Source: an uncultured Planctomycetia bacterium | GTDB taxonomy: Bacteria; Omnitrophota; Gorgyraeia; 1-14-0-20-64-10 | Reading direction: 5' to 3' | Length of the DNA stretch: 64,000 bases | NCBI GenBank assembly: GCA_964373715.1 | Contig: CAYJVR010000003.1 | Span: 47,050 to 111,049 of the forward strand | In this document: one piece after another, positions 10,641 to 50,685 of the stretch | Layout of the letters: the number at the start of each line of letters is the position of its first letter | How positions within the stretch are numbered: position 1 is the stretch's first letter | Made by a program: the position numbers and the translations under genes | The notes under the pieces: generated by a model | Seen by the model: the letters and a program-made list of their open reading frames with translations, nothing else | Database searches by the model: none | Told to the model about the DNA's origin: nothing

Positions 10641-10710
10641 TACCCCACCACCTGTTTAAGCATTTTCATTATAAGTTTGATGCTGTCCCCACCCAAAACA
10701 GGTGGTGGGG

Positions 10711-14567: not shown

Positions 14568-14576
14568 AAGCCGCTT

Positions 14577-15464: not shown

Positions 15465-15586
15465 TGCAAAAGGATAATACCGATTTTCTTGAACTCCGTC
15501 AACCCCAGCCTCCGGATTCCTCGCAATGACAAACAATTATCCTTTTGTTATAATAACCGCTCCGTTTCATTTTCTTTACCAAATCC

Positions 15587-16078
15587 ATGACGCAAAACAT
15601 CTTTTATCTTCTCGCCGCGCTGAGTATCGCCGGCGCGCTCGGGGTCATCCTGGCGCGCAACCCGGTGTATGCCGTTTTGAGCCTGGTGGCGACGATGTTC
15701 GCCATCTCCGGCATCTTTCTCCTACTGCACGCCTACTTCGTGGCGGCGATCCAGATCCTGGTCTACGCCGGCGCCGTGCTCGTGCTCTTCCTGTTCGTGG
15801 TGATGCTGCTGGACATGGCGCCGGAGACCATGTTCCGCATGAAGATCAACACGCTGAAAATCGGCGGCGCCCTTTTCAGCCTCTTCCTTCTCTGGGAAAT
15901 CCTGACGGCAGCAGGCTTCTTCACCATCCCTTCGGCTAACGACAACTCGTCCCAGGGAACGACAGCGGCGGTAGGCAAACTCCTTTTTACCCGCTACGCA
16001 CTGCCCTTTGAGCTGGCCTCAATCCTTCTTTTAGTCGGCATCATCGGCGCCATCGTGTTGGCCAAAAAGAAACTATGA
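15587..16078 (+). CDS. nuoJ: NADH-quinone oxidoreductase subunit J
   Basis: Typical NuoJ five-TM profile. First gene of nuoJKLMN. Confidence 0.85.
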   Translation: MTQNIFYLLAALSIAGALGVILARNPVYAVLSLVATMFAISGIFLLLHAYFVAAIQILVYAGAVLVLFLFVVMLLDMAPETMFRMKINTLKIGGALFSLFLLWEILTAAGFFTIPSANDNSSQGTTAAVGKLLFTRYALPFELASILLLVGIIGAIVLAKKKL

Positions 16079-16377
16079 TCTCACTCACACATCTGCTGGC
16101 ACTCAGCGGTATCCTTTTCGTCATCGGGCTAATCGGCACGATCACTCGGCGCAACATCATCATGATCCTGCTGAGCCTCGAGATCATCCTCAACGGGGTC
16201 AATATCGCTTTCGTCGCCTTCTCCTACGCTTTAGGCAACCTGACCGGGCAAATCATCGTCTTCTTCGTCATGATCGTCGCAGCGGTGGAGGTCACGGTGG
16301 GCCTAGCAATCGCTGTGGTCCTCGTCCAACAAATGGGCCAAACAAACGCCGATGAGCTGAAGCTGCTCAAATGGTAG
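16075..16377 (+). CDS. nuoK: NADH-quinone oxidoreductase subunit K
   Basis: 100 aa with 3 TM helices and conserved Glu residues. Confidence 0.85.
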   Translation: MISLTHLLALSGILFVIGLIGTITRRNIIMILLSLEIILNGVNIAFVAFSYALGNLTGQIIVFFVMIVAAVEVTVGLAIAVVLVQQMGQTNADELKLLKW

Positions 16378-18290
16378 AGCACCAAGAAATCGCCCGCGCT
16401 GCCGCGGCGCACACGGTCGCTCCGGCCGGCTGGCTCGCATGGACGATTCTCTTCCTGCCTCTGGCCGCATTTTTGGCAATCACTTTCCTTACCCGGAAAT
16501 CCAAACTCCTCAGCACCTCTTTAGCGATCGGCTCTATGGCCATCGGCCTGGCGGCAACCGGCACTCTTCTGCTTCATCTTCTGCGCGCCGGTGAGCACGC
16601 CGCTTATCAATACACCGTGAACTGGATCACCCTGCCAGGCCTGGCGGTCGAGTTCGGCCTGCTGATCAATCCCCTCTCGGTGCTGATGAGCCTTGTGGTC
16701 ACAGGGGTAGGTCTGATGATCTTCCTCTATTCGATTGGCTACATGGCGGACGACGCGGCCTACAGCCGCTACTTCGCCTACCTCTCCCTCTTCGCTTTCT
16801 CAATGCTCGGAATCGTGCTGGCCAATAACTTCGTCACCCTCTTCATGTCCTGGGAACTCGTGGGAGCCAGCTCCTACCTGCTGATCGGCTTCTGGTACGA
16901 CAAACCGGCGGCGGCCGATGCCGGTAAAAAAGCGTTTCTTGTCAACCGAATCGCCGACTTCGGCTTTTTGGCCGGAATCCTGATGCTCTGGAGCATCGCA
17001 GGCAACCAGCTCGACCCGAAAACGCTCAACCTCATTGAGCTGGAACAGAGGATGCCGGGCCTTATCGCGCAGTGGGGCGTGAACCTGTTTTCCCCGCTCT
17101 CGATCGCGGCACTGCTGATCTTCTGCGGAGCGGTCGGCAAGTCGGCCCAGTTTCCTCTGCATGTCTGGCTGCCCGACGCGATGCAGGGCCCGACGCCGGT
17201 TTCCGCCCTCATGCATGCCGCCACGATGGTGGCGGCGGGCGTTTACATGATCTGCCGGGTCTTTTTTCTCTTCGGAGAAGTTCCCGGCGCGCTCGAAATC
17301 ATCGCGGTGATCGGCGGCTTCACCTCGATCTTCGCGGCCAGCATGGCCCTCGTGGAAAACGACATCAAACGGATCCTCGCCTACTCCACCTTGAGCCAGC
17401 TCGGCACCATGGTGATGGCGCTGGGCCTGGGCGGCTACACCGCCGGCATGTACCACCTCTCCACGCACGCCTTCTTTAAAGCGCTTCTCTTTCTCGGCGC
17501 CGGCTGCGTGATTCACGCGATGCACTCGAACAACATCTGGCACATGGGAGGCTTAAAGAAAGCCATGCCGGTCACCACAGCCCTCTTTTTCATCGGCTCG
17601 CTCGCGCTGGCCGGCATCTGGCCCCTGTCCGGGTTCTGGAGCAAAGACGAGATCCTGGCGCTGGCCTTCGGCAAATGCAAGATCCTCTGGACGGTCGGCA
17701 CAGTGACCGCCGGAATGACCGCCTACTACATGGGCCGGGTGCTCTGCGTGGTTTTCCTGGGGGAACAACGGGACCACCACGCCCACCCGCACGAAGTACC
17801 TCCTGTCATGTATATGCCGCTCATCGTGCTGGCAATTTTCTCGGTGGTTGGCGGTTTTATTGGGATCCCCTCCCTGCTCCATCACGCAAAGGGGGTCCAC
17901 GTCGAGTTTAACAAGCTGGTGGCACTGATCTCCAGCGCCGCGGCAGCCGGCGGATTGTTGCTGGCTTTCAAGGTTTACGGCAAACAACCGCAAGAGGACC
18001 CATTCGCGGTGAGGTTCAAGGGGCTCACCCGCCTGCTGACCAGCAAATATTACATAGACGACATCTACGGCTGGCTCAACACCAACATCCAGCAGAGGAC
18101 GGCATTGGTCTCCGCTTGGGTGGAGCGAAACGTCATCATGAGTTTCCTCGTCAACGGCACCGCTAAAATTACCGGCTTGTCCGGCTCCCTCTTAACCAAA
18201 TTTCAGACCGGCAAAGTGCAGGCCTATGCGTTGAGCCTGGTCGCAGGCATCGGGATACTGATCTACGTGGGATGGCGATGCATCCCGTAA
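16371..18290 (+). CDS. nuoL: NADH-quinone oxidoreductase subunit L
   Basis: 639-aa antiporter-like subunit. Confidence 0.9.
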   Translation: MVEHQEIARAAAAHTVAPAGWLAWTILFLPLAAFLAITFLTRKSKLLSTSLAIGSMAIGLAATGTLLLHLLRAGEHAAYQYTVNWITLPGLAVEFGLLINPLSVLMSLVVTGVGLMIFLYSIGYMADDAAYSRYFAYLSLFAFSMLGIVLANNFVTLFMSWELVGASSYLLIGFWYDKPAAADAGKKAFLVNRIADFGFLAGILMLWSIAGNQLDPKTLNLIELEQRMPGLIAQWGVNLFSPLSIAALLIFCGAVGKSAQFPLHVWLPDAMQGPTPVSALMHAATMVAAGVYMICRVFFLFGEVPGALEIIAVIGGFTSIFAASMALVENDIKRILAYSTLSQLGTMVMALGLGGYTAGMYHLSTHAFFKALLFLGAGCVIHAMHSNNIWHMGGLKKAMPVTTALFFIGSLALAGIWPLSGFWSKDEILALAFGKCKILWTVGTVTAGMTAYYMGRVLCVVFLGEQRDHHAHPHEVPPVMYMPLIVLAIFSVVGGFIGIPSLLHHAKGVHVEFNKLVALISSAAAAGGLLLAFKVYGKQPQEDPFAVRFKGLTRLLTSKYYIDDIYGWLNTNIQQRTALVSAWVERNVIMSFLVNGTAKITGLSGSLLTKFQTGKVQAYALSLVAGIGILIYVGWRCIP

Positions 18291-19771
18291 CCTGGGCCCT
18301 CCTCTCCCCGTTTGTTGGGGTTACCCTGCTCTTCGTGATTCCACAGTCCCGCGTGGACTGGGTCCGCCGGATTTCGGCCATCTTCGCCTTCATCCCGTTC
18401 GTAATCGCCCTTTACCTTATCTCCCACTACGACAGAACCATCGCCGGCTACCAGTGGGTCCATAAAATCCCCTGGATCAGCTCACTCGGTGTCTCCTATC
18501 AGGTCGGCGTGGACGGAATCAGCGTCGTCCTCCTGCTCCTGCACTCCATCTGCGGATTGGCGGGGGTCTTGATCTCCTACCGGATCACGGAGCGTGTCAA
18601 AGAGTATTACATCTTCTACCTCATGCTGATCGGCGGCGTCACCGGCGTTTTCGTCTCGCTCGACCTCTTCTTTTTCTACATGTTCTACGAGATGGCGGTC
18701 ATCCCGATGTTCCCGCTGATCGGCATATGGGGGTCCGGCGAAAAGTATTACGCCACGATGAAGCTGACCCTCTACCTCACCGCCGGAGCGGTGCTCGCAT
18801 TGGTCGGGCTGATGATGGTCTACATGATCAGCGGCATTTGGACCTTCGACCTGATCTTTCTGGAAAGGTACCTGGCGCAGAACCCGATCCCGGGCCACAT
18901 CCAGATCTTCCTGTTCCCGTTCCTGCTGATCGGCTTCGGTGTGATCGCGCCGATGTGGCCATTCCACTCCTGGTCGCCGATCGGCCACGCCTCGGCACCG
19001 GCCGCCGTCTCCATGCTCCATGCCGGTGTGCTGATGAAGCTCGGCTCCTACGCGATCCTCAGGGTCGCGTTCCAGATCCTCCCGCAGGGGGCCTACACCT
19101 GGATGCCCTGGGTGGCGGTGCTCTGCACGATGAACATCCTGTACGGCGGTTTCGTAGCGATGGCGCAAAAGGACATCAAGTACACGATCGGCTACTCCTC
19201 TTCGAGCCACATGGGCTACGTCCTCTTGGGCCTGGCCTGCCTGAACCCGGTCGCCTTAAACGGGGCCGTTTTCCTCATGTTCGCGCACGGCATCATGACC
19301 GCGCTGGCCTTCGCCAGCGTCGGCCATATCTACGACCAGACCCACACCCGCATCACCTCCGACTGGGGCGGCCTCTCAAAAAGGATCCCCTTCATCGCAA
19401 CGATGTTCGTGCTGGCTGCGCTGGCCTCCAGCGGTCTGCCGGGCTTCGGCAATTTCGTCGGTGAATTGCTCATCTTCTTCGGCTCGTGGGACGTTTACCG
19501 CTGGCCTGCCCTCGCGGCAATCTTCGGCATCATCACCACAGCCTTCTACATGCTACGCGCCGTAAGGACCGGTTTCTTCGGCCCACTTAACCCAAAGTGG
19601 GAGCATCTCGAAGACGCCAATACACTTTTCGAGAAAGCGCCGTACCTCCTACTCGTGGGGGCGTTGGTCGCGGTCGGCTGCTGGCCGAGGCTCCTGACCG
19701 AGATCGTCTCCGTCTCAACCGGCAATATCTTGAGCCACCTCTCTCCCTTGAAAACACTGGCGGGACTCTAA
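18272..19771 (+). CDS. nuoM: NADH-quinone oxidoreductase subunit M
   Basis: 499-aa antiporter-like subunit. Confidence 0.9.
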   Translation: MAMHPVTWALLSPFVGVTLLFVIPQSRVDWVRRISAIFAFIPFVIALYLISHYDRTIAGYQWVHKIPWISSLGVSYQVGVDGISVVLLLLHSICGLAGVLISYRITERVKEYYIFYLMLIGGVTGVFVSLDLFFFYMFYEMAVIPMFPLIGIWGSGEKYYATMKLTLYLTAGAVLALVGLMMVYMISGIWTFDLIFLERYLAQNPIPGHIQIFLFPFLLIGFGVIAPMWPFHSWSPIGHASAPAAVSMLHAGVLMKLGSYAILRVAFQILPQGAYTWMPWVAVLCTMNILYGGFVAMAQKDIKYTIGYSSSSHMGYVLLGLACLNPVALNGAVFLMFAHGIMTALAFASVGHIYDQTHTRITSDWGGLSKRIPFIATMFVLAALASSGLPGFGNFVGELLIFFGSWDVYRWPALAAIFGIITTAFYMLRAVRTGFFGPLNPKWEHLEDANTLFEKAPYLLLVGALVAVGCWPRLLTEIVSVSTGNILSHLSPLKTLAGL

Positions 19772-19774
19772 CCG

Positions 19775-21202
19775 GTGGACACACTCCTTTACCTTCTCCC
19801 TGAAGTCTGGGTGAGCCTCCTGGCTCTCTTCGTACTTTTTCTCGACCTCTCCTGGGAAAAGGAACGGCATCCCCAAATCGGCCTCATGGCGGCGATGGGC
19901 ATGATCCCGGTACTGCCGATCCTGTTCATGCAGAGACAGCTCGGCACGGTGGATCTCCTGTACGGGATGTACCGGATTGACCAGGTCGCGCTCATCTTCA
20001 AGGGGATCTTCATCTTTGCCGCGATCTTCGTGATCCTGATGACCCGGGAGCAATCCCGGACGATGGAACGGGGCCACGGGGAATTTTACTTGCTGATCCT
20101 CGCGGCGACGCTCGGCATGATGTTCGCCGCTTCAGCCGCCGACTTCCTGATGCTGTTCGTCTCGCTGGAGCTGATCACGGTCAGCTTCTACGTGATGACC
20201 TCCTACTTGAAGACGAACCTCCGTTCGCTGGAGGCCGGCGTGAAATATCTGATCCTGGGCTCGATCTCCTCCGCCTGCCTGCTTTACGGGATCGCCTTCG
20301 TCTACGGCACCACCGGCTCGGTCAATTTCTCCGAAATCCGGCATTTCCTCAAGGGAACCCCTTATTCCGCCAGCTGTCTCTTCGGCCTTTTCCTTATCCT
20401 GGGCGGCATCCTCTTTAAAGCGACGGCGGTCCCGTTCCAGCTCTGGGCACCGGATGTTTACGAGGGGGCCCCGACGCCGGTGACAGCGTTCCTTTCGGTA
20501 GGGTCCAAATCGGCCGGGTTCCTCGTGGCTCTGCGGGTTTTCCACGAGCTGTTCATGCCGGCCAGCAGCGACTGGGTGCCGCTCATGGTCTGGCTGTCGG
20601 GCCTCACGATCCTTTACGGAAACCTGGGGGCGATCTCCCAAAAGAACATCAAGCGGCTGTTCGGCTACTCCTCGATCGGGCACGCCGGCTACTTATTGAT
20701 GGGGCTGGCAACCCCCTCGAGTCTCGGCACGACCGCGGTGATCTTTTATCTCACCGGCTACCTATTCACGAACATGGCTGCCTTCCTCGTCATCATCACC
20801 TTCTCCAGCCACACCAACTCGGATGAAATTAAGGATTACGCGGGCTTGGCCAGACGCTCGCCGTTCCTGGCGATGGTGATGTTCGTCTCCCTGCTCTCGC
20901 TGGCGGGCGTGCCGCCGATGGCCGGCTTTATCGGCAAATTCATGCTGCTGTTAAGCGCCCTCTCGGAAGGATTTTTAGTGCTGGCGGTGATCGGAGCGGC
21001 AGCGGTGGTGATCTCGCTCTACTACTATCTCATGATCGTCCGGACGATCTACGCCGACACCCCGTCCGACGCCTCCCCCATTCCGGTTTCCTGGCCGGCA
21101 AAGATCGCGATGATCACCTGCCTGGCCGGCATCTTCGTGATCGGCGTCTGGCAGGAGCCGTTTTTGAACGCCTCCTTCGCCGCCGTCAAGAAACTCTTCT
21201 GA
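19775..21202 (+). CDS. nuoN: NADH-quinone oxidoreductase subunit N
   Basis: 475-aa antiporter-like subunit. Confidence 0.9.
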   Translation: MDTLLYLLPEVWVSLLALFVLFLDLSWEKERHPQIGLMAAMGMIPVLPILFMQRQLGTVDLLYGMYRIDQVALIFKGIFIFAAIFVILMTREQSRTMERGHGEFYLLILAATLGMMFAASAADFLMLFVSLELITVSFYVMTSYLKTNLRSLEAGVKYLILGSISSACLLYGIAFVYGTTGSVNFSEIRHFLKGTPYSASCLFGLFLILGGILFKATAVPFQLWAPDVYEGAPTPVTAFLSVGSKSAGFLVALRVFHELFMPASSDWVPLMVWLSGLTILYGNLGAISQKNIKRLFGYSSIGHAGYLLMGLATPSSLGTTAVIFYLTGYLFTNMAAFLVIITFSSHTNSDEIKDYAGLARRSPFLAMVMFVSLLSLAGVPPMAGFIGKFMLLLSALSEGFLVLAVIGAAAVVISLYYYLMIVRTIYADTPSDASPIPVSWPAKIAMITCLAGIFVIGVWQEPFLNASFAAVKKLF

Positions 21203-21939
21203 TGGATCTGAACCAGGAACTTTTCATCGGCCTTCCGCGGCAGGGCCCGGGCAGCAACGCCTGCACGCGGAAAGCGCTTCGCCTTTTCACCAAACTCCCT
21301 CCGACACCGGAAATCCTCGACCTTGGCTGCGGCACCGGCTTGACCTCGGTTCAGCTTGCTCACCAGACCGGGGGGCATGTCACCGCGGTGGACATCTGCA
21401 AGCCGTACCTCGACCAGCTGACGATCTACTCCCAGCTCACCAGCCTGAATAACCGGGTCAAGCCGCATCTGGGCAAAATGGAAGAGCTGCCGTTCAAGAA
21501 GGAAAGCTTTGATCTGATCTGGGCCGAAGGCTCGATCTATCTGATCGGGTTCAAGAAAGGGCTCGAGTACTGGAGGGGGTTCCTCAAGAAGGGGGGATTC
21601 GCCTGCGTGAGCGAGCTGACCTGGCTCTCAAACGAGCCGCCGGATGAGCCGAAACGATTCTGGAAGAAGAAATACCCCGCGATGAAGGACATCCGGGGCA
21701 ACCTGAAGCTGGCCGAAGAGGCCGGTTACAAGCCAGTGGACCAGTACCTGATCCCCGAACTGGACTGGTGGCAGAATTACTACGGGCCGATGGAGCGGAG
21801 GATTGTGGACCTGCGTGGGCAGTACGCCGCCGACCCGGACGCCCTGCAGAAGCTCAAGGAACAGCAGGCGGAGCTCACTTTGTTCAAGGAATACGCGAAC
21901 ATCTACGGCTACGTCTTCTACGCCCTCCAAAAATCGTAG
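21202..21939 (+). CDS. Class I SAM-dependent methyltransferase, start-overlapping the nuoN stop
   Basis: LDLGCGTG motif I and a downstream acidic motif II. Confidence 0.7.
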   Translation: MDLNQELFIGLPRQGPGSNACTRKALRLFTKLPPTPEILDLGCGTGLTSVQLAHQTGGHVTAVDICKPYLDQLTIYSQLTSLNNRVKPHLGKMEELPFKKESFDLIWAEGSIYLIGFKKGLEYWRGFLKKGGFACVSELTWLSNEPPDEPKRFWKKKYPAMKDIRGNLKLAEEAGYKPVDQYLIPELDWWQNYYGPMERRIVDLRGQYAADPDALQKLKEQQAELTLFKEYANIYGYVFYALQKS

Positions 21940-21979
21940 GAATAGGTGTGGGGCTCCTTTTCGGAATCACCCTTATGGG

Positions 21980-22006
21980 GTCCTTCGACAAGCTCAGGGC
22001 GAACGG
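21980..22006. repeat. 27-bp dispersed repeat, family R3, copy A (MTase/nuoI convergent intergenic region)
   Basis: GTCCTTCGACAAGCTCAGGGCGAACGG, identical at 26 of 27 positions to 23985-24011. Confidence 0.65.
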
Positions 22007-22039
22007 GGTACCTCCGCCACAAGGCTTTGGCGGACGCCC

Positions 22040-22097
22040 CGTGAGCGGGGCGAAAAACAAAAACCGGGCGGCTCCTGAACAGGAACCACCCGGATTT
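22040..22097 (-). terminator. Candidate rho-independent terminator for the minus-strand nuoA-I operon. An adjacent GC hairpin may also terminate the plus-strand nuoJ-N/MTase transcript.
   Basis: Minus-strand RNA: CCGGGUGGUUCCUG-UUCA-GGAGCCGCCCGG followed by UUUUUGUUUUU. It lies just 3' of the nuoI stop. A neighbouring CGCCCCG-ugag-CGGGGCG hairpin is also present. Confidence 0.5.
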
Positions 22098-22124
22098 GCC
22101 TTTACCGGGGAGGGAGAGTTGGGG

Positions 22125-22787
22125 TCAGTGCCCTTTGGACGTTAGCTCCCGCAGGCGCTTCCAACCCTCTTCGGTAATCTGCTTCCGATCCTTATTATAC
22201 ACCTGCTTCCAGTCTCCCGTCATCTCTTCTTTATGGAACGAGCATTTGTGGGGGAACTTGAGGTCGCATTTCTTGGTGGCCTTGCGCAGTTTCGGATCCA
22301 TCAGCTCATGGATGTCCAGCTTCATCTCGTCGCGGGTGTAGGCCGCCACGTCAAGGATATTCGTGTCCATCCGGATCGCGTCCTCCGGGCAGACCTCCAC
22401 GCAGTAGCCGCAATAGACGCAGACCCCCAGGTCAATATCGAACTTGACAGGGTACTTCTCCACGTTTGGGTCCGGGTGCTCGCCGGCCACGATCGTGATG
22501 CATTTGGCCGGGCAGACCGTCTCGCAGAGCATACAGCCCACGCACCGGGGGGTCCCCTCTTCGCGGACAGTCAGCCGGTGCCGGCTCCGGAAGCGGGGGG
22601 CCAACGGCCTCGGGTTCTCCGGGTATTGGAACGTCACGCCGGCCTGCACATCCTTCATCAGGCCGAACCGGTGGGCCGTGTGGATCCCCAGGTTCCGGAA
22701 GAAGTGAACGGAGGTGATATAGACCCCCCGGAAGATCTCCGGCAGGTACAGGTTTTCCCAGAATGTCAGTTCCCTCTTACGGATCAT
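22125..22787 (-). CDS. nuoI: NADH-quinone oxidoreductase subunit I with a ~60-aa Lys-rich C-terminal extension
   Basis: Two CxxCxxCxxxCP ferredoxin motifs. 220 aa versus the typical ~160-180 aa. Confidence 0.85.
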   Translation of the reverse strand: MIRKRELTFWENLYLPEIFRGVYITSVHFFRNLGIHTAHRFGLMKDVQAGVTFQYPENPRPLAPRFRSRHRLTVREEGTPRCVGCMLCETVCPAKCITIVAGEHPDPNVEKYPVKFDIDLGVCVYCGYCVEVCPEDAIRMDTNILDVAAYTRDEMKLDIHELMDPKLRKATKKCDLKFPHKCSFHKEEMTGDWKQVYNKDRKQITEEGWKRLRELTSKGH

Positions 22788-22790
22788 GCG

Positions 22791-23930
22791 CTACCAGCCT
22801 TTCGGGAAGAAGACCGCCATCACCAAAGCCGTCACCGCCACGTTCGCCAGCGCGATCGGGAAAAGGACCTTCCAGCCGAGCTTCATCAGCTGGTCGTAGC
22901 GAAACCTCGGCAAGGTCCAGCGGATCGTCATGAAGAGCCAGCAGAAAAAGATCACCTTCAGCGAGAAGGACCCGACGCCCATCAGGGCGTAGACCAGGTT
23001 ATTCACCGGCACCGACCCCCCCCAGGGAAAGTAAAACCCGCTCGGAGAAAGGAACGGCACCTGCCACCCGCCAAGGAATAGGGTGGTAAGCAGGCAGGAG
23101 ATCAGCACCGTCTCGAGGAAATCCACCATGAAGAAGATGCCGAACTTCATGCCGCTGTACTCCACAAAATAGCCGACGATCTCCGACTCCCCTTCCGGGA
23201 GGTCGAAGGGAATCCTTTTGGTCTCGGCGAGCGCCGCCGCCATGAAGACGAAGAAGGCGACCGGCTGGAGGAATATCCCCCACATCGGCAGAAAGCCGAA
23301 CAGATACCTGCCCTGCGCCCTCACCATCTCCTGCAGGTCGAGCGTGCCGTAGAGCATCACGAGGCCGATGATCGAGATCCCCAGCGCGATCTCATAGGAG
23401 ATCATCTGGGCCGAGGCCCGCAGGGAGCCGAGGATCGCGTAGTTATTTTTTGAGGAGAAGCCGGCCAGGATCACGCCGTAGACCCCGAGCGACATCATCG
23501 CGAAAACGTACAAAAGGGCGATGTCAATCTTGGCGATCTGCAGGTCGATCACCTGCCCGCTTAAGACCAGCCGGTCGCCGAACGGAATGCCGGCGAACGC
23601 CACCAGCGCGAAAAACATCGAGAGGAACGGGGCCAGCGTGTGGAGGAACCGGTCGGCGTTGGCCGGAATGAAATCCTCCTTGGTAAACATCTTCACAGCA
23701 TCGGCGACCGGGTGGAACAGCCCGAGTACATTGAGCGGCCTCAGCAACCAGTTGATCGGCGCCGCCCATTTCCAGGGTAGACGGATATAGGCCCGGTTTG
23801 CGCCAATCCGGTCCTGCATCAGGGCCGACTGCTTGCGCTCGACCCAGGCATGCAGACCCCCCAGTTGGAGCACGAAACCGAGAATAAAGGCCCCCGCCAG
23901 ACCGGCCTTGACCGCAATCACGGAGATCAT
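22791..23930 (-). CDS. nuoH: NADH-quinone oxidoreductase subunit H
   Basis: 379-aa polytopic ND1-like protein. Confidence 0.9.
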   Translation of the reverse strand: MISVIAVKAGLAGAFILGFVLQLGGLHAWVERKQSALMQDRIGANRAYIRLPWKWAAPINWLLRPLNVLGLFHPVADAVKMFTKEDFIPANADRFLHTLAPFLSMFFALVAFAGIPFGDRLVLSGQVIDLQIAKIDIALLYVFAMMSLGVYGVILAGFSSKNNYAILGSLRASAQMISYEIALGISIIGLVMLYGTLDLQEMVRAQGRYLFGFLPMWGIFLQPVAFFVFMAAALAETKRIPFDLPEGESEIVGYFVEYSGMKFGIFFMVDFLETVLISCLLTTLFLGGWQVPFLSPSGFYFPWGGSVPVNNLVYALMGVGSFSLKVIFFCWLFMTIRWTLPRFRYDQLMKLGWKVLFPIALANVAVTALVMAVFFPKGW

Positions 23931-23952
23931 CGGGCGGCCACCTCGATCTCAC

Positions 23953-25623
23953 TCATGGTGAGCCTGTCGAACCATGAGCAGCGCGTCCTTCGACAAGCTC
24001 AGGACGAACGGTGGTTAATTGCGCACCCTGCAGGCCGATCTTGTCGTGCGAAAGCCCTTCGAAAGCCGGATTCTCGGCCGCCAGCTTCGCAAAGATCTCT
24101 TCAGGCGACGCAAAGGGGGCCGGGATCTCCAACAGATGGAACAGCTCCAGAAGTGTTTTCCAGTCGGGGCGGGCCTCCCCCAGAGGAGCGAAGGCCGGCA
24201 GTATCCGCTGTACCCTGCCGTGGCAGTTGACGAACGTACCGTTGTTTTCCGCGAAGACGGCGCTCGGCAAAACCCAGTGGGCATGCTTCGCGGTGCCGTT
24301 CTCGTTCGGCCCCTGGAACACGAACACCTCCAGCTTGTCGGCCAGCGTTTTCACCTTCTCTTCGCCGATCAGATTGACCAGGTCATGGCCGAAGACCCAG
24401 AGGGTCTTGATCTCGCCGGCCAAAGCCTTCTCGATGATCGCGCCGGAAGCGCTGGCCCCGTTGCCCGGCTTGGCCGGCGCGGAAGCCCCCGGGAAACCGA
24501 CCAGCGTGGCCCCGAGCGTGTTCGGATTCTTGTCCCCCTTGATGAGGAAGTCGTCGGAAGAGCCGGGCTGGCGCGGCACCTGGATGTCGCAGTGGCCGAT
24601 CCCCAGAGATTCCTTGAACAGCTTGCGGACCAGATAAAGCTCCTCGTTGGTCTGCTGGGCCGACGGAAGCACACCGACCTGCCCCTGCTTCCCTTCCGAT
24701 TTCGCGCGGCTGAGCGCATCGGCGAGCCCGCTCAGCGCCTGGTCCCAGGTAGTTTCACGCCCCTTCTGCCGGACCTTCAGTATCCGGTCCTTATCAATGA
24801 ACTTGTAACCGTAGCGGCCCTCGTCGCACATCCACCACTGGTTCACCTCTGAGTTGTACCGGGGCTTGACCCGCATCACGCGGGCGCCGTCGGCCAGGTG
24901 CGGCCGGTCGGTGACGTAATGAAGATCAATGTTGCAACCCTGCGAACAACCGGTGCAGACCGACGGGGCCGTTGAAAGATACCAGACCCTCGCTTTGAAC
25001 CGGAAATCTCGGTCGGTCAGGGCTCCAACCGGGCAGATGTCTACCACGTTGCCGGAGTAATTGTTTTCGAGCACCTTGCCCGGATAGAGACCAACTTCCG
25101 CCTTGTCTCCCCGGTTAAAAATCCCCAGTTCGCCGGTCTTGCTCACTTCATCGGTGAACCGGGTGCATCGGGAGCAGAGAACACACCTCTCGGCGTCCAG
25201 CATCACGGTGGGGCCAAGAGGCAGAGCCTTCGCCTTCTTGACCTTCTGCTCCTGGAACCGTGAATCGTACAGCCCGTACTGCATGTAGAAATTCTGCAGG
25301 TCGCACTCCCCCGACTGGTCGCAGACCGGGCAGTCGAGAGGATGGTTGATCAGCAGGAACTCAAGCACCGACTGCTGGCCCTCGGTCACTTTCTGGGAGT
25401 TGGTGCGGACTACCATCCCCTCGGCGACCGGTGTGTTGCAGGCAATCTGGAGTTTCGGGGCTTTCTCGATCTCCACGAGGCAGATCCGGCAGTTGCCGGC
25501 AATCGAGAGGCCCGGGTGATAGCAGTAGCGGGGCACGAAGATGCCGAGTTTCTCCGCCGCCTGGATCACCGTCGTCCCGGGCGGGACCTCGACCTCTTTT
25601 CCGTCAATCGTCAGTTTAGGCAT
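23953..25623 (-). CDS. nuoG: NADH-quinone oxidoreductase subunit G (short form)
   Basis: The N-terminal 2Fe-2S and 4Fe-4S Cys motifs are present. The last ~17 codons are encoded by a dispersed 27-mer repeat. Confidence 0.85.
   Translation of the reverse strand: MPKLTIDGKEVEVPPGTTVIQAAEKLGIFVPRYCYHPGLSIAGNCRICLVEIEKAPKLQIACNTPVAEGMVVRTNSQKVTEGQQSVLEFLLINHPLDCPVCDQSGECDLQNFYMQYGLYDSRFQEQKVKKAKALPLGPTVMLDAERCVLCSRCTRFTDEVSKTGELGIFNRGDKAEVGLYPGKVLENNYSGNVVDICPVGALTDRDFRFKARVWYLSTAPSVCTGCSQGCNIDLHYVTDRPHLADGARVMRVKPRYNSEVNQWWMCDEGRYGYKFIDKDRILKVRQKGRETTWDQALSGLADALSRAKSEGKQGQVGVLPSAQQTNEELYLVRKLFKESLGIGHCDIQVPRQPGSSDDFLIKGDKNPNTLGATLVGFPGASAPAKPGNGASASGAIIEKALAGEIKTLWVFGHDLVNLIGEEKVKTLADKLEVFVFQGPNENGTAKHAHWVLPSAVFAENNGTFVNCHGRVQRILPAFAPLGEARPDWKTLLELFHLLEIPAPFASPEEIFAKLAAENPAFEGLSHDKIGLQGAQLTTVRPELVEGRAAHGSTGSP
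23985..24011. repeat. R3 repeat copy B (encodes the C-terminal tail of nuoG)
   Basis: GTCCTTCGACAAGCTCAGGACGAACGG. Read in the nuoG frame it encodes ...VRPELVEGRA... Confidence 0.65.
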
Positions 25624-27489
25624 TTAGGCGTGGACCTCTGTCCTTGCCAGATCGCACTTCCCGGTGGCGACGTGGTGCTCGAACTCGCTCCGGAACTTGT
25701 TGATGTAGCTCTGCACCGGCCAGGCCGCCGCGTCGGCGAAAACGCAGATCGTTTTCCCCTCCATGTTGGAGGCGATCGAGAGCATGTTGTTGATGTCGGC
25801 GGGCCGTCCTTGCGCGTTCTTCACCCGGTCCATGATCTTGAGAATCCAGCCGGTCCCCTCCCGGCACGGGGAGCATTGGCCGCACGACTCGTCGGCGAAG
25901 AAGTGGGCGGCGCTCTGCAAAGCGTCCACCATGCAGGTGGTCTCATCCATCACGATTACGCCGGCCGAACCGGCCATCGTGCCGGCCGCCATCAGCGAAT
26001 CGAAGTCCATGCCGACCTCTATCTCATCAGCCTTCAGGATCTTCGCGGAGATGCCTCCCGGCACCACCGCCTTGAGCTTCTTGCCCTCCCGGATGCCGCC
26101 CGCGTATGTCGCGGAGTAGATCAGTTCTTTTAATGAGACGCCGGCGGAGGCCTCGTAAAGGCCGGGCCGGACCACGTGGCCGGAAACAGAAAAAAGCCGC
26201 GTGCCCCCCTGCTTCGGGGTGCCCAGCTTGGCGAACCACTCGGGGCCGTTGCGGATGATCGGCGGCACAGCGGCGAGGGTCTCCACGTTGTTCACGATCG
26301 TCGGACACTTGAAGAGGCCGGAGATCGCCGGGAACGGCGGCTTCAGTTTCGGGAAACCCTTGCTCCCTTCGAGCGAGGAAAGCAAAGCCGTCTCCTCCCC
26401 GCAGATGTAGGCGCCGGCCCCCTTGTGCACCACGAGCTCCAGGTCAAAACCGGATCCCTGGATGTTCTTGCCCAGCCACCCTTTGGCGTACGCCTCAGCG
26501 ACCGCCTTGCCAAAGCGCTCGATCGAGCGGTCGTATTCGCCCCGGATGTAAACATAAGATTTATGGGAACCGATCGCGTAGGCGGCGATGATGATCCCTT
26601 CGATTAAAGAGTGAGGGTCCCTCTCGAGGATATACCGGTCCTTGAAGGTGCCCGGCTCCCCCTCGTCGGCGTTGACCACGAGGAACTTCGGCTTCGGGGA
26701 ATTCTTCGGGATGAACGACCACTTCTTGCCGGTCGGAAAGCCGGCGCCGCCGAGGCCGCGCAGATTCGCCTTGCTGACCGTGTCGATCACCTGCTCCGGC
26801 TTCATCGTGCTCAACACCTGCTTCGCCGCCTGATAGCCCTTGTCGGCCGTGTAGGCGTCGAACCAGGCGCCGGCCACGCTCTTGAAACGGCTCGAGATCA
26901 CCGGCCCCTCTGTGGCAATGTGAAGCGCCGGTTCCGGAACGTTCAGACTCCCGCCCGGGCCGCTCCGGGTCTGCTGGATCACCGTCTCGAAGATGGTTTT
27001 ATCGGTCAGGCAGCCGACGTATTGCTTGTTCACCTGAGCGCAGGGGGCCGCCTCGCACGCGCAGAGACACTCGACCGTGGAAAGGGTCACCTGCCCGTCC
27101 GGCGTGGTCTCTCCGGGAGATATCCCGTACCGCTCCTTCATCTGGGCGATCACGTTCTTCGACCCTTTAAGGAGACACGGCAGGGAGACGCAAACCTGGA
27201 CGTTGTATTTGCCGACTGGCTTCGTGTGATAAAGGGTGTAGAAGGAAACCACCTCCCGGACATGGACAATGCTGGTCTCCACCTTGTCAGCCACCCATTG
27301 TTCCGCTTCGGGGGTAAGATAACCGATCGAATCCTGCGCGAGCCACAACAGAGGCAGGGTCGTGGCTCGCTTCTCCTCGTACTTCTCGAGGATCTCGTTC
27401 GCCTGGGCTTCCAGTTTTTGGAAGTCGAATTTTCCGTGCCCCATGCCCCCCGCCCCTTGTCCCTTATCTCCTGCTCCCTGTCCCATCAT
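25624..27489 (-). CDS. nuoEF: Fused NADH-quinone oxidoreductase subunits E and F (24-kDa 2Fe-2S domain plus 51-kDa FMN/NADH/4Fe-4S domain)
   Basis: The N-terminal ~170 aa have the NuoE Cys motifs (CVSLPC...CLCACEAAPC). The remainder is NuoF, with GLGGAGFPTGKKWSF, a GEPGTFKDR segment and the 4Fe-4S CGQCSPCREG motif. The N-terminal leader is Gly-rich. Confidence 0.85.
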   Translation of the reverse strand: MMGQGAGDKGQGAGGMGHGKFDFQKLEAQANEILEKYEEKRATTLPLLWLAQDSIGYLTPEAEQWVADKVETSIVHVREVVSFYTLYHTKPVGKYNVQVCVSLPCLLKGSKNVIAQMKERYGISPGETTPDGQVTLSTVECLCACEAAPCAQVNKQYVGCLTDKTIFETVIQQTRSGPGGSLNVPEPALHIATEGPVISSRFKSVAGAWFDAYTADKGYQAAKQVLSTMKPEQVIDTVSKANLRGLGGAGFPTGKKWSFIPKNSPKPKFLVVNADEGEPGTFKDRYILERDPHSLIEGIIIAAYAIGSHKSYVYIRGEYDRSIERFGKAVAEAYAKGWLGKNIQGSGFDLELVVHKGAGAYICGEETALLSSLEGSKGFPKLKPPFPAISGLFKCPTIVNNVETLAAVPPIIRNGPEWFAKLGTPKQGGTRLFSVSGHVVRPGLYEASAGVSLKELIYSATYAGGIREGKKLKAVVPGGISAKILKADEIEVGMDFDSLMAAGTMAGSAGVIVMDETTCMVDALQSAAHFFADESCGQCSPCREGTGWILKIMDRVKNAQGRPADINNMLSIASNMEGKTICVFADAAAWPVQSYINKFRSEFEHHVATGKCDLARTEVHA

Positions 27490-28817
27490 CGATCCAGCTC
27501 CCCGCCGATCATGTTGACCGACCCAAAGGTCGGGACCACGTCGGCCATCTGGTCGCCGTTCAACAAGAGAGGCAGCGCCCCCATGATAGTAAAGCAGGGG
27601 GGCCTCACCCGGACCCGGTAGGGGTTCTCGGTGCCATCGCTCACGATGTAGAAACCGAGTTCCCCGTTGGCCCCTTCGACCGGCACGTACGCCTCACCCT
27701 TAGGCGGGCGTATCCCGTGGCCGACCATCACCAGCTTGAAGTGGTTCATCAGCCCTTCGATGTTGCCGTAGGTGTCCTCTTTTGCCGGCAGGAAAACCCT
27801 CTTCTCCGGCGCGGCGATATCTTTCCAGACCGTTTTGTCGGTCCCCTGCAAAGTGGGGTCCACCTCCGCCATCTTGCCAGCGATCTCCCGGATCTTGCCC
27901 ATCTTGGCCTCGTCGATCATTTCGGCAGCCGGGATCGGCTCGAGCGCCTCCGGCTTGACCGGCAGGCCGGTCTCCGGGTCCACCGCAACGTGCCCGCCGG
28001 GGATATCCTTCAGGCATTGTTCAATAATCCGGATGGACTGCTCCATCTCCTCCATCCGGCAGTAGTAGCGGTCCAGGTTGTCGCCGTGCGAACCGAGCGG
28101 AACATCAAACTGAAGCCGGTCATAAATCGAGTAGGCGCAAGCCTTGCGCACGTCGTAATTGACGCCGGTACTCCGCAGGAACGGCCCGGTGATTCCGTAG
28201 GAGATGGCATCCTTCTGGGAGATTTTGCCGGTCCCCTTCATTCGGTCCACGAAGATCCGGTTGCGGGTCAAAAGCTTGTCGCACTCCGCAATAACGTCGC
28301 GCACATCCTTCAACGCTTTTCTCGTCTTCTCCTCGAAACCGGGCGGCAGGTCGGCCTTCACGCCGCCGACGCGGCAGTAGGAGACGGTCAGCCTCGCGCC
28401 GGTCACCATCTCCACCAACTCCCAGAGGTACTCGCGCGCCTTGATCATATAGAGGAAGACGGTGAAGGCTCCGAGCTCCATCGCGGAGGCGCCGACACAA
28501 GTGAGGTGATCGGTGATGCGCGATATCTCCGAAACGATCACCCGGATGTATTCGCAGCGCTCCGGCACCTTCAGGCCGAGCAGTTTCTCGACCGCCATCG
28601 CGTAGCCGACGTTGTTGATGAGCGGCGAGACGTAGTTCAAGCGGTCGGTGTACGGGAAGACGCCGTTGTAGGTGACCGTCTCCGACATCTTCTCGAATCC
28701 CCGGTGCAGGTAACCGATCTCGACGTCCGTGGAGCGGATCGTCTCCCCTTCCAGGCCAACGATGATCCGGATGATCCCGTGCATCGCCGGATGGGCAGGG
28801 CCGACATTCAGCAGCAT
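27486..28817 (-). CDS. nuoD: NADH-quinone oxidoreductase subunit D (49 kDa) with a ~40-aa internal insertion
   Basis: Start placed at ATG 28817 (MLLNVGPAHPAMHG...). The 31 upstream codons of the ORF (to the GTG at 28910) lie inside a copy of the 48-bp dispersed repeat and are probably non-coding. Confidence 0.8.
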   Translation of the reverse strand: MLLNVGPAHPAMHGIIRIIVGLEGETIRSTDVEIGYLHRGFEKMSETVTYNGVFPYTDRLNYVSPLINNVGYAMAVEKLLGLKVPERCEYIRVIVSEISRITDHLTCVGASAMELGAFTVFLYMIKAREYLWELVEMVTGARLTVSYCRVGGVKADLPPGFEEKTRKALKDVRDVIAECDKLLTRNRIFVDRMKGTGKISQKDAISYGITGPFLRSTGVNYDVRKACAYSIYDRLQFDVPLGSHGDNLDRYYCRMEEMEQSIRIIEQCLKDIPGGHVAVDPETGLPVKPEALEPIPAAEMIDEAKMGKIREIAGKMAEVDPTLQGTDKTVWKDIAAPEKRVFLPAKEDTYGNIEGLMNHFKLVMVGHGIRPPKGEAYVPVEGANGELGFYIVSDGTENPYRVRVRPPCFTIMGALPLLLNGDQMADVVPTFGSVNMIGGELDR

Positions 28818-28880
28818 CTCCTTCGTCTGCAAAGAAGACGCGTCATCGCGAGACCCCGAAGGGGTCGTGGCAATCTCGTT

Positions 28881-28928
28881 GGTGCTTTCCGTATGAGATT
28901 GCTTCGTCACTTCGTTCCTCGCAATGAC
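28881..28928 (-). repeat. R1 repeat copy 3 (inverted orientation) at the nuoD 5' end
   Basis: Reverse complement reads GTCATTGCGAGGAACGAAGTGACGAAGCAATCTCATACGGAAAGCACC. Partial 11-mer copies also occur at 15499-15516 and 38729-38742. Confidence 0.65.
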
Positions 28929-28938
28929 GCGTACCGCA

Positions 28939-29541
28939 TCAATTCACCGGGCCAATTAAGGGCTGGCGCTTACTGACAGGATAATCCTTGCGCAATGGGT
29001 GCCCCTTGAATTCCGAATACAGCAAAAGCCGCTTCAGGTTCGGGTGCCCCTTGAATTTGATCCCGTACATATCCCACACCTCCCGCTCGAACCAGTTGGC
29101 GGATCCCCACAAATGGGCCACCGAATCCACCTGGGGATTCGACTCCTCGACCGGGACTTTTAAGCGGAGCCTATGGCCAAGAGGCAGAGAAAAAAAGTGA
29201 TAGACCAGCCCGAACCGGGCTTTCGCCGCCGTACCCGGCCAGGGAGATCCGTCCTCGATGTGGCCCGGCGGTTTGGCCGCAACACCTGCGTTGAAATGGG
29301 CCGCCTTGGCCGGCGGGGTCGCGGCAAACGTGAGGTAATCCACCGCCGTCAGATCGATCAGAAAATTCATCTGGAACGAGGAATTCTCTTTAAGGAAATT
29401 CGCCACGTCGAGAACATACTCCGGGCGGATCGTGGTGGTGGCGTCACCCCTGTAGGTATGGGTCGAGATGACCGCCGCGGCAAAACGCCGGGAGATCAGA
29501 TCGAAGAGGGCGGGGTCAGACTGAGAAAGATTTTCCGGCAT
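28939..29541 (-). CDS. nuoC: NADH-quinone oxidoreductase subunit C (30 kDa) with a ~35-aa Ala/Pro-rich insertion
   Basis: The NuoC core (LIDLTAVDY...FGLVYHFFS...) is interrupted by TFAATPPAKAAHFNAGVAAKPPGH... Confidence 0.8.
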   Translation of the reverse strand: MPENLSQSDPALFDLISRRFAAAVISTHTYRGDATTTIRPEYVLDVANFLKENSSFQMNFLIDLTAVDYLTFAATPPAKAAHFNAGVAAKPPGHIEDGSPWPGTAAKARFGLVYHFFSLPLGHRLRLKVPVEESNPQVDSVAHLWGSANWFEREVWDMYGIKFKGHPNLKRLLLYSEFKGHPLRKDYPVSKRQPLIGPVN

Positions 29542-30025
29542 GATACATCTGCGCTTTCGGGAACTCTTTTCCGGAATGCTGAAGCTGGATCTTTTCCTGA
29601 AGCTTCATCAGGCCGTCCAACACATACTCAGGCCTGGGGGGACAGCCGGGAATGTAAATGTCCACAGGGATAATCGTGTCGATCCCCATCACGGTGGCGT
29701 AATTGTCGTAGAAACCGCCGGTGCAGGTGCAGACGCCGAACGCGACGACCCACTTCGGTTCGGTCATCTGGTCGTAGATCTTCTTCAAAATCGGCGCCAT
29801 CTTGTGGCTGATCGTGCCGACCACGAAGAGGACGTCGGCCTGCCGGGGGGAAAAACGCGGGAGACCCGCCCCGAACCGGTCCACGTCGTAGTGGGAGCAG
29901 GCGGTGGCCATGTACTCCATGCCGCAGCAAGCGGTGACAAAAGGGTACTGGAAAATCGAGTACTTGCGGGCCCACCCGATCGCCGATTCCAGCTTGCTGG
30001 TAACGAAGTTTTCTCCGCCGAACAT
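29516..30025 (-). CDS. nuoB: NADH-quinone oxidoreductase subunit B (PSST)
   Basis: CCxxE...C...CP 4Fe-4S (N2) motif. SD GAGGT upstream. Confidence 0.9.
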   Translation of the reverse strand: MFGGENFVTSKLESAIGWARKYSIFQYPFVTACCGMEYMATACSHYDVDRFGAGLPRFSPRQADVLFVVGTISHKMAPILKKIYDQMTEPKWVVAFGVCTCTGGFYDNYATVMGIDTIIPVDIYIPGCPPRPEYVLDGLMKLQEKIQLQHSGKEFPKAQMYHAGKSFSV

Positions 30026-30042
30026 ATTTACCTTACCTCGCC

Positions 30043-30090
30043 GTCATTGCGAGGAGCATAGCGACGCGGCAATCTCATCGCAGAATCACC
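30043..30090 (+). repeat. 48-bp dispersed repeat, family R1, copy 1, between the nuoB start and nuoA
   Basis: GTCATTGCGAGGAGCATAGCGACGCGGCAATCTCATCGCAGAATCACC. The partner motif GCCACGCTCCACTCGCAATGACAC at 30115-30138 carries the inverted 11-mer. Confidence 0.7.
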
Positions 30091-30147
30091 CAAGATAACT
30101 TTGCATGAGATGGCGCCACGCTCCACTCGCAATGACACATAATGCGT

Positions 30148-30516
30148 TCACTGCCATTCGAGAGCACCTTTGCGCCAAGCATACACAAAGCCGATCAACA
30201 GGACCCCCAGGAAGAGGGCCATCGTCGTGAACCCGGGCAGGCCCAGATGCCTGTAAACGACCGCCCAGGGGAACAGGAAGACCAGCTCAACGTCAAAGAG
30301 AATAAAGAGCATCGCGATCAGGTAAAAGCGGATCGTCATCTTGCCGGTCGGCAGGCTGAACGGCCTCTCGCCGCATTCGAACGGTTCGCTCTTGGCGGCT
30401 GAAGGCTTCTTCGGGCCGAGGATCGAGGAGAGCAGGATGAAAACCCCTGCGATCCCGCCGGCCAGAATAAATGTGACTAGGATACCGAGATATTCGCTCA
30501 TGGATAAGACGCTCAT
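30148..30516 (-). CDS. nuoA: NADH-quinone oxidoreductase subunit A
   Basis: 3-TM ND3-like protein. ATG at 30516 with a GGGAG SD. The ORF-track start at 30528 is a TTG. Confidence 0.8.
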   Translation of the reverse strand: MSVLSMSEYLGILVTFILAGGIAGVFILLSSILGPKKPSAAKSEPFECGERPFSLPTGKMTIRFYLIAMLFILFDVELVFLFPWAVVYRHLGLPGFTTMALFLGVLLIGFVYAWRKGALEWQ

Positions 30517-30556
30517 TATAACAATCAAGCTCCCGAATTTCTACTTATCCATCTCT

Positions 30557-30603
30557 GTCATTGCGAGAAGCGTAGCGACGAAGCAATCTCATGCAAAATC
30601 AAC
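30557..30603 (+). repeat. R1 repeat copy 2, in the nuoA/thyA divergent region
   Basis: GTCATTGCGAGAAGCGTAGCGACGAAGCAATCTCATGCAAAATCAAC, with the partner GCCACGCTCTGCTCGCAATGACAC at 30691-30714. Confidence 0.7.
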
Positions 30604-30740
30604 TTACGGTTAGCCGGTTTGCGAGTTTGCGAGTTAACCGGTGAACCGACTAACAGGCCAACTGGCCAACGCTTTGTTCCAGGACGAAATGCCACGCTCT
30701 GCTCGCAATGACACGGCAAGACCCGTATAATGATGAACCT

Positions 30741-34230: not shown

Positions 34231-34252
34231 GGGAGAGGGTTAGGGTGAGGGG
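34208..34252. repeat. GC-rich palindromic repeat, family R2, copy a (the leuC stop is in its loop)
   Basis: CCCTTACCCTTCCCTCTCCC-tga-GGGAGAGGGTTAGGGTGAGGGG, a near-perfect ~20-bp-arm hairpin. Confidence 0.7.
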
Positions 34253-34260
34253 AAACCAAG

Positions 34261-38577: not shown

Positions 38578-38747
38578 TGAGAGTGGCGTGTAGGCAGAAT
38601 CTATGATCATCTTATCTTTACAATCCAGTCAACCTATTAAGAAGTATGTCTGAAACAGGGCTAGAAATACAAGGGATAAAACAAGATTTATATTCCTTTA
38701 CTAGCTGAACGTGGGATTATTGTCATTGCGGGGGTTTACGCTGGCTT

Positions 38748-50649: not shown

Positions 50650-50685
50650 CCCGTTACAGGGAAAGCGGTTCCGGCACACACGGCC

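Follow-up and report, generated by a model that had tools for sequence, protein, structure and literature searches.

The locus described here raises the question of what enzyme is encoded when the genes for respiratory complex I face each other from opposite strands, and how such an order would arise. It lies in a 64-kb stretch of contig CAYJVR010000003.1 (the window; 64,000 nucleotides in full) from an uncultured bacterium of the Omnitrophota, in which nuoJ-K-L-M-N are found on the plus strand and nuoA-B-C-D-EF-G-H-I on the minus strand. These identities and strands had been assigned in an initial annotation made from the letters alone, and Pfam and NCBIfam agree with both. Gene identities were established from a listing of open reading frames (ORFs), Pfam and NCBIfam scans and translations of the window, and the window proteins were mapped onto 80 species-level loci. 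With a probability of about 90%, we read the region as encoding a complete proton-pumping NADH:quinone oxidoreductase (complex I, NDH-1), whose two convergent units would go back to one inversion of nuoJ-N. The initial annotation is confirmed with minor corrections, and the features that it singled out are lineage traits, each with precedent.

Subunit content and catalytic motifs

The cluster encodes 14 core subunit families on 13 polypeptides, each with Pfam matches over the gathering cut-offs, and the NCBIfam models for nuoF, nuoE, NuoG, NuoD, NuoC, NuoI and NuoL score above cut-off as well. Since several subunits barely clear these NCBIfam cut-offs, the enzyme is a divergent one. The translations contain the N-module motifs GLGGAGFPTGKKW, GAGAYICGEET, ESCGQCSPCREG, VCVSLPC...ECLCAC, HPLDCPVCDQSGEC and CVLCSRC; the sites for flavin mononucleotide (FMN) and NADH and for clusters N1a (Cx4C...Cx3C), N3 (CxxCxxC...C), N1b, N4 and N5 are all present and invariant in the homologue alignment. 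The N1a and N3 cysteines reside in NuoEF, and both 4Fe-4S motifs of N6a/b in NuoI. The Q-module is equally well marked, by ACCGMEY and PGCPP (cluster N2) in NuoB, CVGCMLCETVCP and CVYCGYCVEVCP in NuoI, and PAMHG and DRLNY, with the quinone-site His and Tyr, in NuoD. Proton-channel residues were read by eye: E36 and E72 in NuoK, and the Glu of transmembrane helix 5 (TM5) and Lys of TM7 in NuoL (SWELVG and GKSAQFPLHVWLPDAM), NuoM (FYEMAVIP and VLMKLG) and NuoN (SLELIT and FKATAVPFQLWAPDVY). It is from this complement that we infer the enzymatic function.

For NuoD, NuoC, NuoG, NuoI, NuoH and NuoF, the PDB chains that match best by sequence belong to complex I, and all core subunits and motifs are shared with the canonical enzymes of Thermus thermophilus (4HEA), Paracoccus (8QBY) and Mycobacterium (8E9G). 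The window differs from these in having two convergent units instead of one operon, a fused E-F chain that no solved complex I has, and some 35-60 extra residues in each of NuoC, NuoD, NuoH and NuoI. NuoA, NuoH and the peripheral arm would be made from one transcript and the NuoJ-N membrane module from the other, with a shared terminator region between them. An 11-subunit complex I-like enzyme without NuoEFG is ruled out by the presence of nuoEF and nuoG between nuoD and nuoH, as is a "2M" or extra-pump variant, the antiporter-like subunits being NuoL, NuoM and NuoN only.

Convergent layout and its origin

The initial annotation had contrasted the convergent units with the canonical single nuoA-N operon, and this contrast holds: in the canonical-type loci fetched from other phyla, nuoJ follows nuoI or nuoH on the same strand. 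The best matches to the window are metagenome-assembled genomes (MAGs) labelled Candidatus Omnitrophota and a few labelled "uncultured Planctomycetia". Among the clade loci that reach past nuoI, the convergent layout occurs in eight of eight (L001, L004, L006, L007, L010, L012, L014 and L017; NuoEF 60-83% identical to that of the window). Because every related locus reaching the nuoI end has it, the arrangement is the norm of the lineage and is not peculiar to this genome, an outcome that had been named beforehand as lowering its novelty. Wherever the upstream flank is present, which is so in five of the eight, it holds thyA-folA beside nuoA; the pair is kept in L001, L002, L006, L007 and L017. 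Among the clade relatives, nuoI and nuoN are separated by 16 bp to 5 kb.

Given the co-directional nuoJ of other phyla, nuoI and nuoN meeting tail-to-tail is the expected outcome of one J-N inversion. A single in-place inversion in the ancestor of the Omnitrophota-type clade would have split the canonical nuoA-N string, so that the nuoA-I unit on the minus strand may share its promoter region divergently with thyA-folA, and the nuoJ-N unit on the plus strand may use a promoter of its own beside the divergent transketolase gene, with a generic methyltransferase gene added in this genome. The promoter candidate of nuoJ, a consensus match only, lies 33 nt 5' of its ATG. For nuoA, a start at the TTG at 30528 had been proposed, and this is unlikely. 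The NuoA proteins of relatives are 117 aa long and the -10 hexamer of a promoter-like site falls at 30520-30515, so the ATG at 30501 is probably the start.

Departures from a single operon have precedents. Rhodothermus marinus has two nqo operons, and the clusters of Aquifex are split. The complex I genes of Chloroflexus aurantiacus cluster 2 are likewise not in one co-directional operon. Unlike such dispersed clusters, the halves in the window are adjacent and tail-to-tail, which is the signature of one inversion. Exceptions are also implied by the colocalisation of nuo genes in 86% of genomes (Spero et al. 2015, PMC4453560), and by the criterion used there (<10 intervening ORFs) the window still counts as colocalised.

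Three loci from MAGs labelled Vicinamibacteria (L008, L009 and L011) have the order J-K-X-L-M-N-A-B-C-D-EF-G-H-I on one strand, X being an extra antiporter-like gene seen only in these three. Their A-I proteins are 57-91% identical to those of the window, as close as pairs within the Omnitrophota, versus only 28-45% for J-N, whose best match in the set is a Thermodesulfovibrionales locus. This suggests that the A-I half may have moved independently of the pump half, either as a hybrid cluster or by horizontal transfer of A-I, and hints that the two halves can have separate histories.

The fused NuoEF subunit

As annotated, nuoE and nuoF form one ORF of 621 codons, with PF01257 over residues 31-168 and PF01512, SLBB and PF10589 over residues 238-606; a NuoE domain (~20-170) is followed by a flexible linker (~170-198) and a NuoF domain (~200-612). 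The frame is unbroken and the linker can be aligned with homologues up to 91% identical. All of the 120 best homologue clusters (66-91% identity) contain both PF01257 and PF01512. Scoring a fusion as an N1a motif upstream of the FMN motif within the same ORF, we found fused nuoEF in 40 of the 80 species-level loci, including all close relatives. It also occurs in groups of Bryobacterales, Terriglobia and Acidiferrales, in some Vicinamibacterales and Thermodesulfovibrionales, and in single genomes of Spirochaetota, Bacteroidetes, Blastocatellia, Limnocylindrales, Pseudobacteriovorax and Sericytochromatia. The other 40 loci have a separate nuoF of ~430 codons with nuoE just before it; a stop codon, and a start codon in a different frame, part the two genes. 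The fusion is recurrent and widespread, and it arises easily because the genes abut: loss of the stop/start junction between adjacent nuoE and nuoF would suffice to give a single chain. One relative, L015, has a frame change inside the E-F linker.

The Gly-rich leader MMGQGAGDKGQGAGGMGHG noted at the N terminus is present in the ORF and found in no relative, even among those 87-91% identical, and its predicted local distance difference test (pLDDT) score is below 50; it is particular to this genome and predicted to be disordered. Translation may instead begin at the in-frame ATG of codon 16 (27444), and the resulting protein would begin where the homologues begin.

An AlphaFold2 (AF2) model of NuoEF, built with 121 sequences, reached a pLDDT of 82.5 and a predicted template modelling score (pTM) of 0.87, with low confidence in the linker. 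Its best whole-chain structure matches (template modelling scores of 0.74-0.75) are the beta subunit of Methylorubrum formate dehydrogenase 1 (FDH1; 7VW6) and HoxF of the NAD+-reducing [NiFe] hydrogenase (5XF9), in which a 2Fe-2S thioredoxin-like domain likewise precedes an FMN/4Fe-4S domain in one chain. NuoF chains from complex I match no more than the C-terminal two thirds of the model. In sequence, NuoEF scores as a true NuoF (TIGR01959, 605 bits) and NuoE, and the PDB chains that it matches by sequence are unfused NuoF chains of complex I; true NuoF reaches 459 bits compared with 297-380 bits for HoxF and the formate dehydrogenase beta subunit. Recruitment of a HoxF/FdsB-type subunit is ruled out, since NuoF models and chains score highest and the gene context is a full nuo cluster, which argues for fusion in situ. 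A flexible linker of ~30 residues would join two ordinary domains, predicted to pack as in HoxF and the formate dehydrogenase beta subunits.

Our literature search for a nuoE-nuoF fusion in bacterial complex I returned no description of one, the sole match being a hydrogenase fusion in ciliates. Sequence databases nevertheless contain fused NuoEF commonly, under the plain annotation NuoF. Merging of neighbouring nuo genes with their domains kept is known from NuoCD (E. coli, clade E) and NuoBCD (PMC4453560), which concern other genes, whereas the NuoEF fusion lies in the N-module. As a natural single-chain N-module, NuoEF could suit expression or structural work.

Additional segments in NuoC, NuoD, NuoH and NuoI

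The insertions had been called lineage-specific, and alignment to solved chains and to relatives supports this: the additional parts of NuoC, NuoD and NuoI are conserved in sequence among the relatives. The Ala/Pro-rich insertion of ~35 residues reported for NuoC comprises 36 residues (71-106) relative to solved NuoC/NDUFS3 chains. NuoD is indeed longer than usual, its excess being an internal insertion of 52 residues (~320-371) relative to NDUFS2/Nqo4 rather than the ~40 residues proposed. Every clade member has the NuoD insertion (37-67% identical), the more distant L016 and L036 and the Vicinamibacteria loci among them, and that of NuoC is confined to a closer subgroup (36-61% identical; 11% in L012). 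Outside the clade, both are absent. The initial annotation had missed ~60 extra residues in NuoH, which include a Trp-rich segment after TM1 seen in some relatives only. The additional segments of all four subunits, conserved in the clade, may elaborate the Q-module and its interface.

NuoI, at 220 aa compared with ~160-180 aa in solved chains, carries a 17-residue N-terminal insertion (~32-48) that had gone unnoticed and a C-terminal extension of ~55 residues. The latter had been described as a Lys-rich tail of ~60 residues, and the extension itself stands; its first ~35 residues, however, form a conserved motif (165-193). Ten positions (P165, R168, K169, C174, L176, F178, P179, H180, C182 and G191) are invariant in 121 homologues, H36 is invariant and H39 at least 90% conserved, although all 121 are at least 66% identical to the window protein, so that invariance is weak evidence. 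Because these ten residues are invariant and only the last ~20 are variable, the tail is, on sequence conservation, a putative conserved module and not a low-complexity Lys tail. The resulting Cys/His pattern consists of H36 and H39 in one segment and C174-x5-H180-x-C182 in the other; in L012, the two His residues are retained and the Cys motif is missing. In an AF2 model of NuoI with 121 relatives (mean pLDDT 58.9), the ferredoxin core scored below 50 and the N- and C-terminal segments 75-91. Profile-free comparison of the 61-residue tail with 1.84 billion representatives gave 15 matches, to short fragments and repetitive long proteins, and no stand-alone or foreign homologue among them. Pfam gave no zinc-finger match in NuoI.

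Convergent spacer and methyltransferase gene

The two units had been described as meeting tail-to-tail in a 185-bp region with hairpins and a repeat. Length, hairpin and repeat are as described; the region is bordered by a methyltransferase ORF and nuoI, not by nuoN, because the ORF at 21202-21939 follows nuoN. As minus-strand RNA, the spacer is far more structured than shuffled sequences (z = -5.0), and as plus-strand RNA it is not (z = -1.0). The segment 22093-22064 fits the Rho-independent pattern of a G+C-rich hairpin and a U tract, and a terminator is predicted there.

The start of the methyltransferase ORF overlaps the nuoN stop by 1 nt, and the gene is probably the sixth of the plus-strand unit. 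Among the convergent relatives, only L001 has it at the nuoN end (63% identity). Proteins 42-50% identical to it are encoded by methanogens, clostridia and cyanobacteria, some of which have no complex I, and this distribution over methanogens and clostridia marks the family as generic and not specific to complex I.

NuoG and small repeats

NuoG is short and ends in repeat sequence, both as noted: a 27-nt repeat overlaps the final ~17-20 codons. The repeat core in the nuoG end (23985-24011) equals 21980-22006 in the spacer with one mismatch, where zero such matches are expected by chance. NuoG of the relatives ends soon past a conserved GLQG (545 aa in the nearest relative, ~530-560 aa in the clade). 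The protein has the N1b, N4 and N5 motifs and an N7-type CxxCxxxC-(X)35-C. Short NuoG is also found in clade C of Spero et al. 2015 (mean 493 aa; PMC4453560), and the length in the window fits such a short form, far under that of Thermus and E. coli NuoG (780-910 aa); the window protein differs in its 556 aa and its N7-type motif. The peptide VRPELVEGR from the NuoG tail recurs in L002, in a NuoG loop (VRPEPFGKLRAGFVEGR) and in the E-F linker (AELVEARANVRPSTGSGRTE), and the nuo genes of this lineage seem to take up small repeats where their coding sequence is permissive.

A short imperfect-palindrome repeat, GTCATTGCGAG...GCAATCTCAT, is present in at least five copies in and around the nuoA-I unit. 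One copy supplies the GTG start of nuoD and its "VTKQSH" codons, and NuoD of L017 likewise begins MVTKQS. Genome-wide small repeats may have landed at gene ends, where they now supply nuoG with its final ~17 codons and nuoD with its initial ones.

Weighing the evidence

Several observations weigh against a complete complex I split by one inversion. The inversion is inferred on parsimony; among the 80 loci, no outgroup was seen to combine the clade-specific insertions with the canonical order, and the nearest non-convergent relatives, the Vicinamibacteria loci, have a different J-N block upstream of nuoA. Some NCBIfam passes are narrow, with scores in bits of 473.3 (cut-off 470.05) for NuoG, 143.3 (142.4) for NuoE, 117.5 (113.05) for NuoI and 126.8 (122.45) for NuoC. 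In principle, the NuoG tail that stems from the repeat could be slightly harmful, and it is uncertain at which codons nuoA, nuoD and nuoEF start. Independent assembly support is limited to 15794-22392, and exact-sequence look-ups for NuoH, NuoG and three NuoEF start variants gave no independent record.

The source is uncultured and probably a MAG, so the fusion, the insertions or the convergent layout might be artefacts of assembly, binning or frameshift, and the frame change in L015 indicates that indel errors or real fissions do occur in the family. Five Logan assemblies from five sequencing runs, retrieved via the methyltransferase gene, however match the window with 100% identity over 15794-22392 or over portions of that interval, covering nuoK-nuoN, the methyltransferase gene, the spacer and the 3' part of nuoI, and thus the junction itself; the methyltransferase also has a 100% identical database entry. 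With more than 120 homologue clusters fused across an alignable linker, and the insertions conserved in many MAGs from different studies, the frameshift or assembly error that the initial annotation had named as a possible refutation is excluded, and we hold an artefact to be exceedingly improbable. Four of the five Logan contigs end at 22391-22392, in the region of the conserved 4Fe-4S motif of nuoI; this shared end probably marks a branch in the assembly graph, to which related strains or species in the samples gave rise. A second alternative concerns direction: the enzyme might work mainly in reverse, from quinol to NAD+, in a lithoautotroph, with split operons for separate regulation of the modules. 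Complex I does make NADH in some chemolithotrophs (Spero et al. 2015, PMC4453560), and nothing direct points to it here; the SdhA, aconitase-family enzyme and transketolase of the window fit ordinary heterotrophic respiration, and we saw no lithotrophy genes in its 64 kb, which makes this reading very unlikely.

Two further proposals would add a function to complex I rather than replace it. The methyltransferase might be a dedicated factor, either a modifier of subunits like NDUFAF5/NDUFAF7 or a UbiE/MenG-type quinone methyltransferase. The overlap with nuoN and the same placement in L001 speak for this, as do a Ubie_methyltran score of 22.6 bits (cut-off 20.1) and homologues called UbiE in some JGI records; the gene is missing from the nuoN end of the other seven convergent relatives, its top NCBIfam matches fall far under their cut-offs, and its homologues extend to organisms that have no complex I. 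With a generic family and a linkage seen in two genomes only, a role as assembly factor or quinone methylase is distinctly unlikely. We regard as doubtful, and put forward only tentatively, that the Omnitrophota and Vicinamibacteria clade has an undescribed structural subclass of complex I, with the fused NuoEF and the insertions in NuoC, NuoD, NuoH and NuoI as built-in supernumerary elements, an accessory module in which the NuoI segments would bind metal like the Zn-binding NDUFS6/NUZM, and with separate units that allow exchange of modules between phyla. Conservation of the NuoI Cys and His residues, the confident prediction of both terminal segments beside a poorly modelled core, and the unequal identities of the two halves in the Vicinamibacteria loci with their extra antiporter-like gene are consistent with it. 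Set against these are the close relationship of the compared NuoI sequences, the absence of the Cys motif from L012, the lack of a Pfam zinc-finger match, tail homologues that are only NuoI fragments, and taxonomic labels of MAGs that may be wrong. If true, the electron-input and quinone half would have been exchanged between phyla and paired with a pump module of four antiporter-like subunits, which would be at odds with the published view of recombination between complex I clades as a rare event.

Implications for annotation

Taken as a complete complex I with an inverted nuoJ-N block, the cluster is of value mainly for annotation and evolution, as a clean case in which one inversion has split an operon, and leaves the understanding of the complex I mechanism unchanged. 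A recent survey of Omnitrophota found complex I fragmentary and nuoG absent at strict KEGG Orthology (KO) thresholds (bioRxiv 10.64898/2026.06.07.730766). Threshold-based pipelines can under-call respiration in this lineage, because NuoG, NuoE, NuoC and NuoI clear their cut-offs by 1-5 bits and nuoE is hidden in a gene named nuoF.

Feature coordinates and neighbouring genes

Table 1. Genes, signals and repeats of the nuo region, in window positions.
Feature	Position	Strand	Evidence or remark
Transketolase, split into N- and C-terminal ORFs	13581-15536	-	flank next to nuoJ
Sigma-70-like promoter candidate of the nuoJ-N unit, ATGACA-17-TATAAT, extended -10 TG	15526..15554	+	11/12 consensus matches
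nuoJ, 163 aa	15587..16078	+	PF00499, E = 2e-41
nuoK, 100 aa, Glu36 and Glu72 present	16075..16377	+	PF00420
nuoL, 639 aa	16371..18290	+	PF00662 and PF00361; NF005141 636 bits (cut-off 556)
nuoM, 499 aa	18272..19771	+	PF00361; orthologues in convergent relatives 58-77% identical
nuoN, 475 aa, GTG start	19775..21202	+	PF00361
Class I S-adenosylmethionine (SAM)-dependent methyltransferase ORF, 245 aa	21202..21939	+	Methyltransf_25/11/31
Convergent spacer, 185 bp, methyltransferase ORF to nuoI	21940..22124		
27-nt repeat core GTCCTTCGACAAGCTCAGGGCGAACGG (family D19), in spacer	21980..22006	+	
Intrinsic-terminator-like hairpin, 13 pairs (9 G-C), then UUUUUGUUUU	22064..22093	-	30 nt past nuoI stop
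nuoI, 220 aa, two 4Fe-4S motifs	22125..22787	-	Pfam, NCBIfam and PDB chain matches
nuoH, 379 aa	22791..23930	-	Pfam; ~60 residues beyond Pfam model length
nuoG, short form, 556 aa	23953..25623	-	TIGR01973 473.3 bits (cut-off 470.05)
Repeat-derived nuoG 3' end, encodes ...VRPELVEGRAAHGSTGSP*	23953..24011	-	relatives without tail
nuoEF, fused, 621 aa (606 aa from ATG 27444)	25624..27489	-	PF01257 and PF01512
nuoD, 474 aa, quinone-site His and Tyr present	27486..28910	-	Pfam
GTCATTGCGAG...GCAATCTCAT repeat at nuoC-nuoD junction	28893..28928		overlaps nuoD GTG start and first codons
nuoC, 200 aa	28939..29541	-	Pfam
nuoB, 169 aa	29516..30025	-	82-96% identity to clade relatives
Two GTCATTGCGAG repeat copies in 122-bp nuoA-nuoB spacer	30038..30137 (30038-30078, ~30105-30137)		
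nuoA, 126 aa from TTG 30528, or 117 aa from ATG 30501	30148..30528	-	PF00507
Sigma-70-like promoter candidate of the nuoA-I unit, TAGAAA-17-TATAAT, TG-extended	30515..30543	-	10/12, consensus match only
GTCATTGCGAG...GCAATCTCAT repeat copies in nuoA-thyA spacer	30552-30592, ~30683-30712		
thyA-folA	30708-32077	+	flank next to nuoA

Rfam and tRNA scans of the whole window gave no match. Other energy and Fe-S genes in the window are those for SdhA and an SdhC-like membrane subunit (8913-11436) and sufB, sufD and sufS of the SUF system (48473-53895). SdhA, the SdhC-like protein and SUF fit an organism that respires and is free-living, and not a nanobacterium that depends on a host; most Omnitrophota have been pictured as fermentative and host-dependent (bioRxiv 10.64898/2026.06.07.730766). 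A 45-nt G/C-rich palindromic repeat, CCTTACCCTTCCCTCTCCCTGAGGGAGAGGGTTAGGGTGAGGGGA, has three intergenic copies (34209-34253, 52584-52628 and 57943-57987): one lies between the genes for the subunits of the aconitase-family enzyme, another precedes sufS, and another is close to a Na/Ca-exchanger gene. On the minus strand, an ORF of 1244 aa (34876-38610), unassigned over most of its length, has as its only Pfam matches two GNAT acetyltransferase domains.

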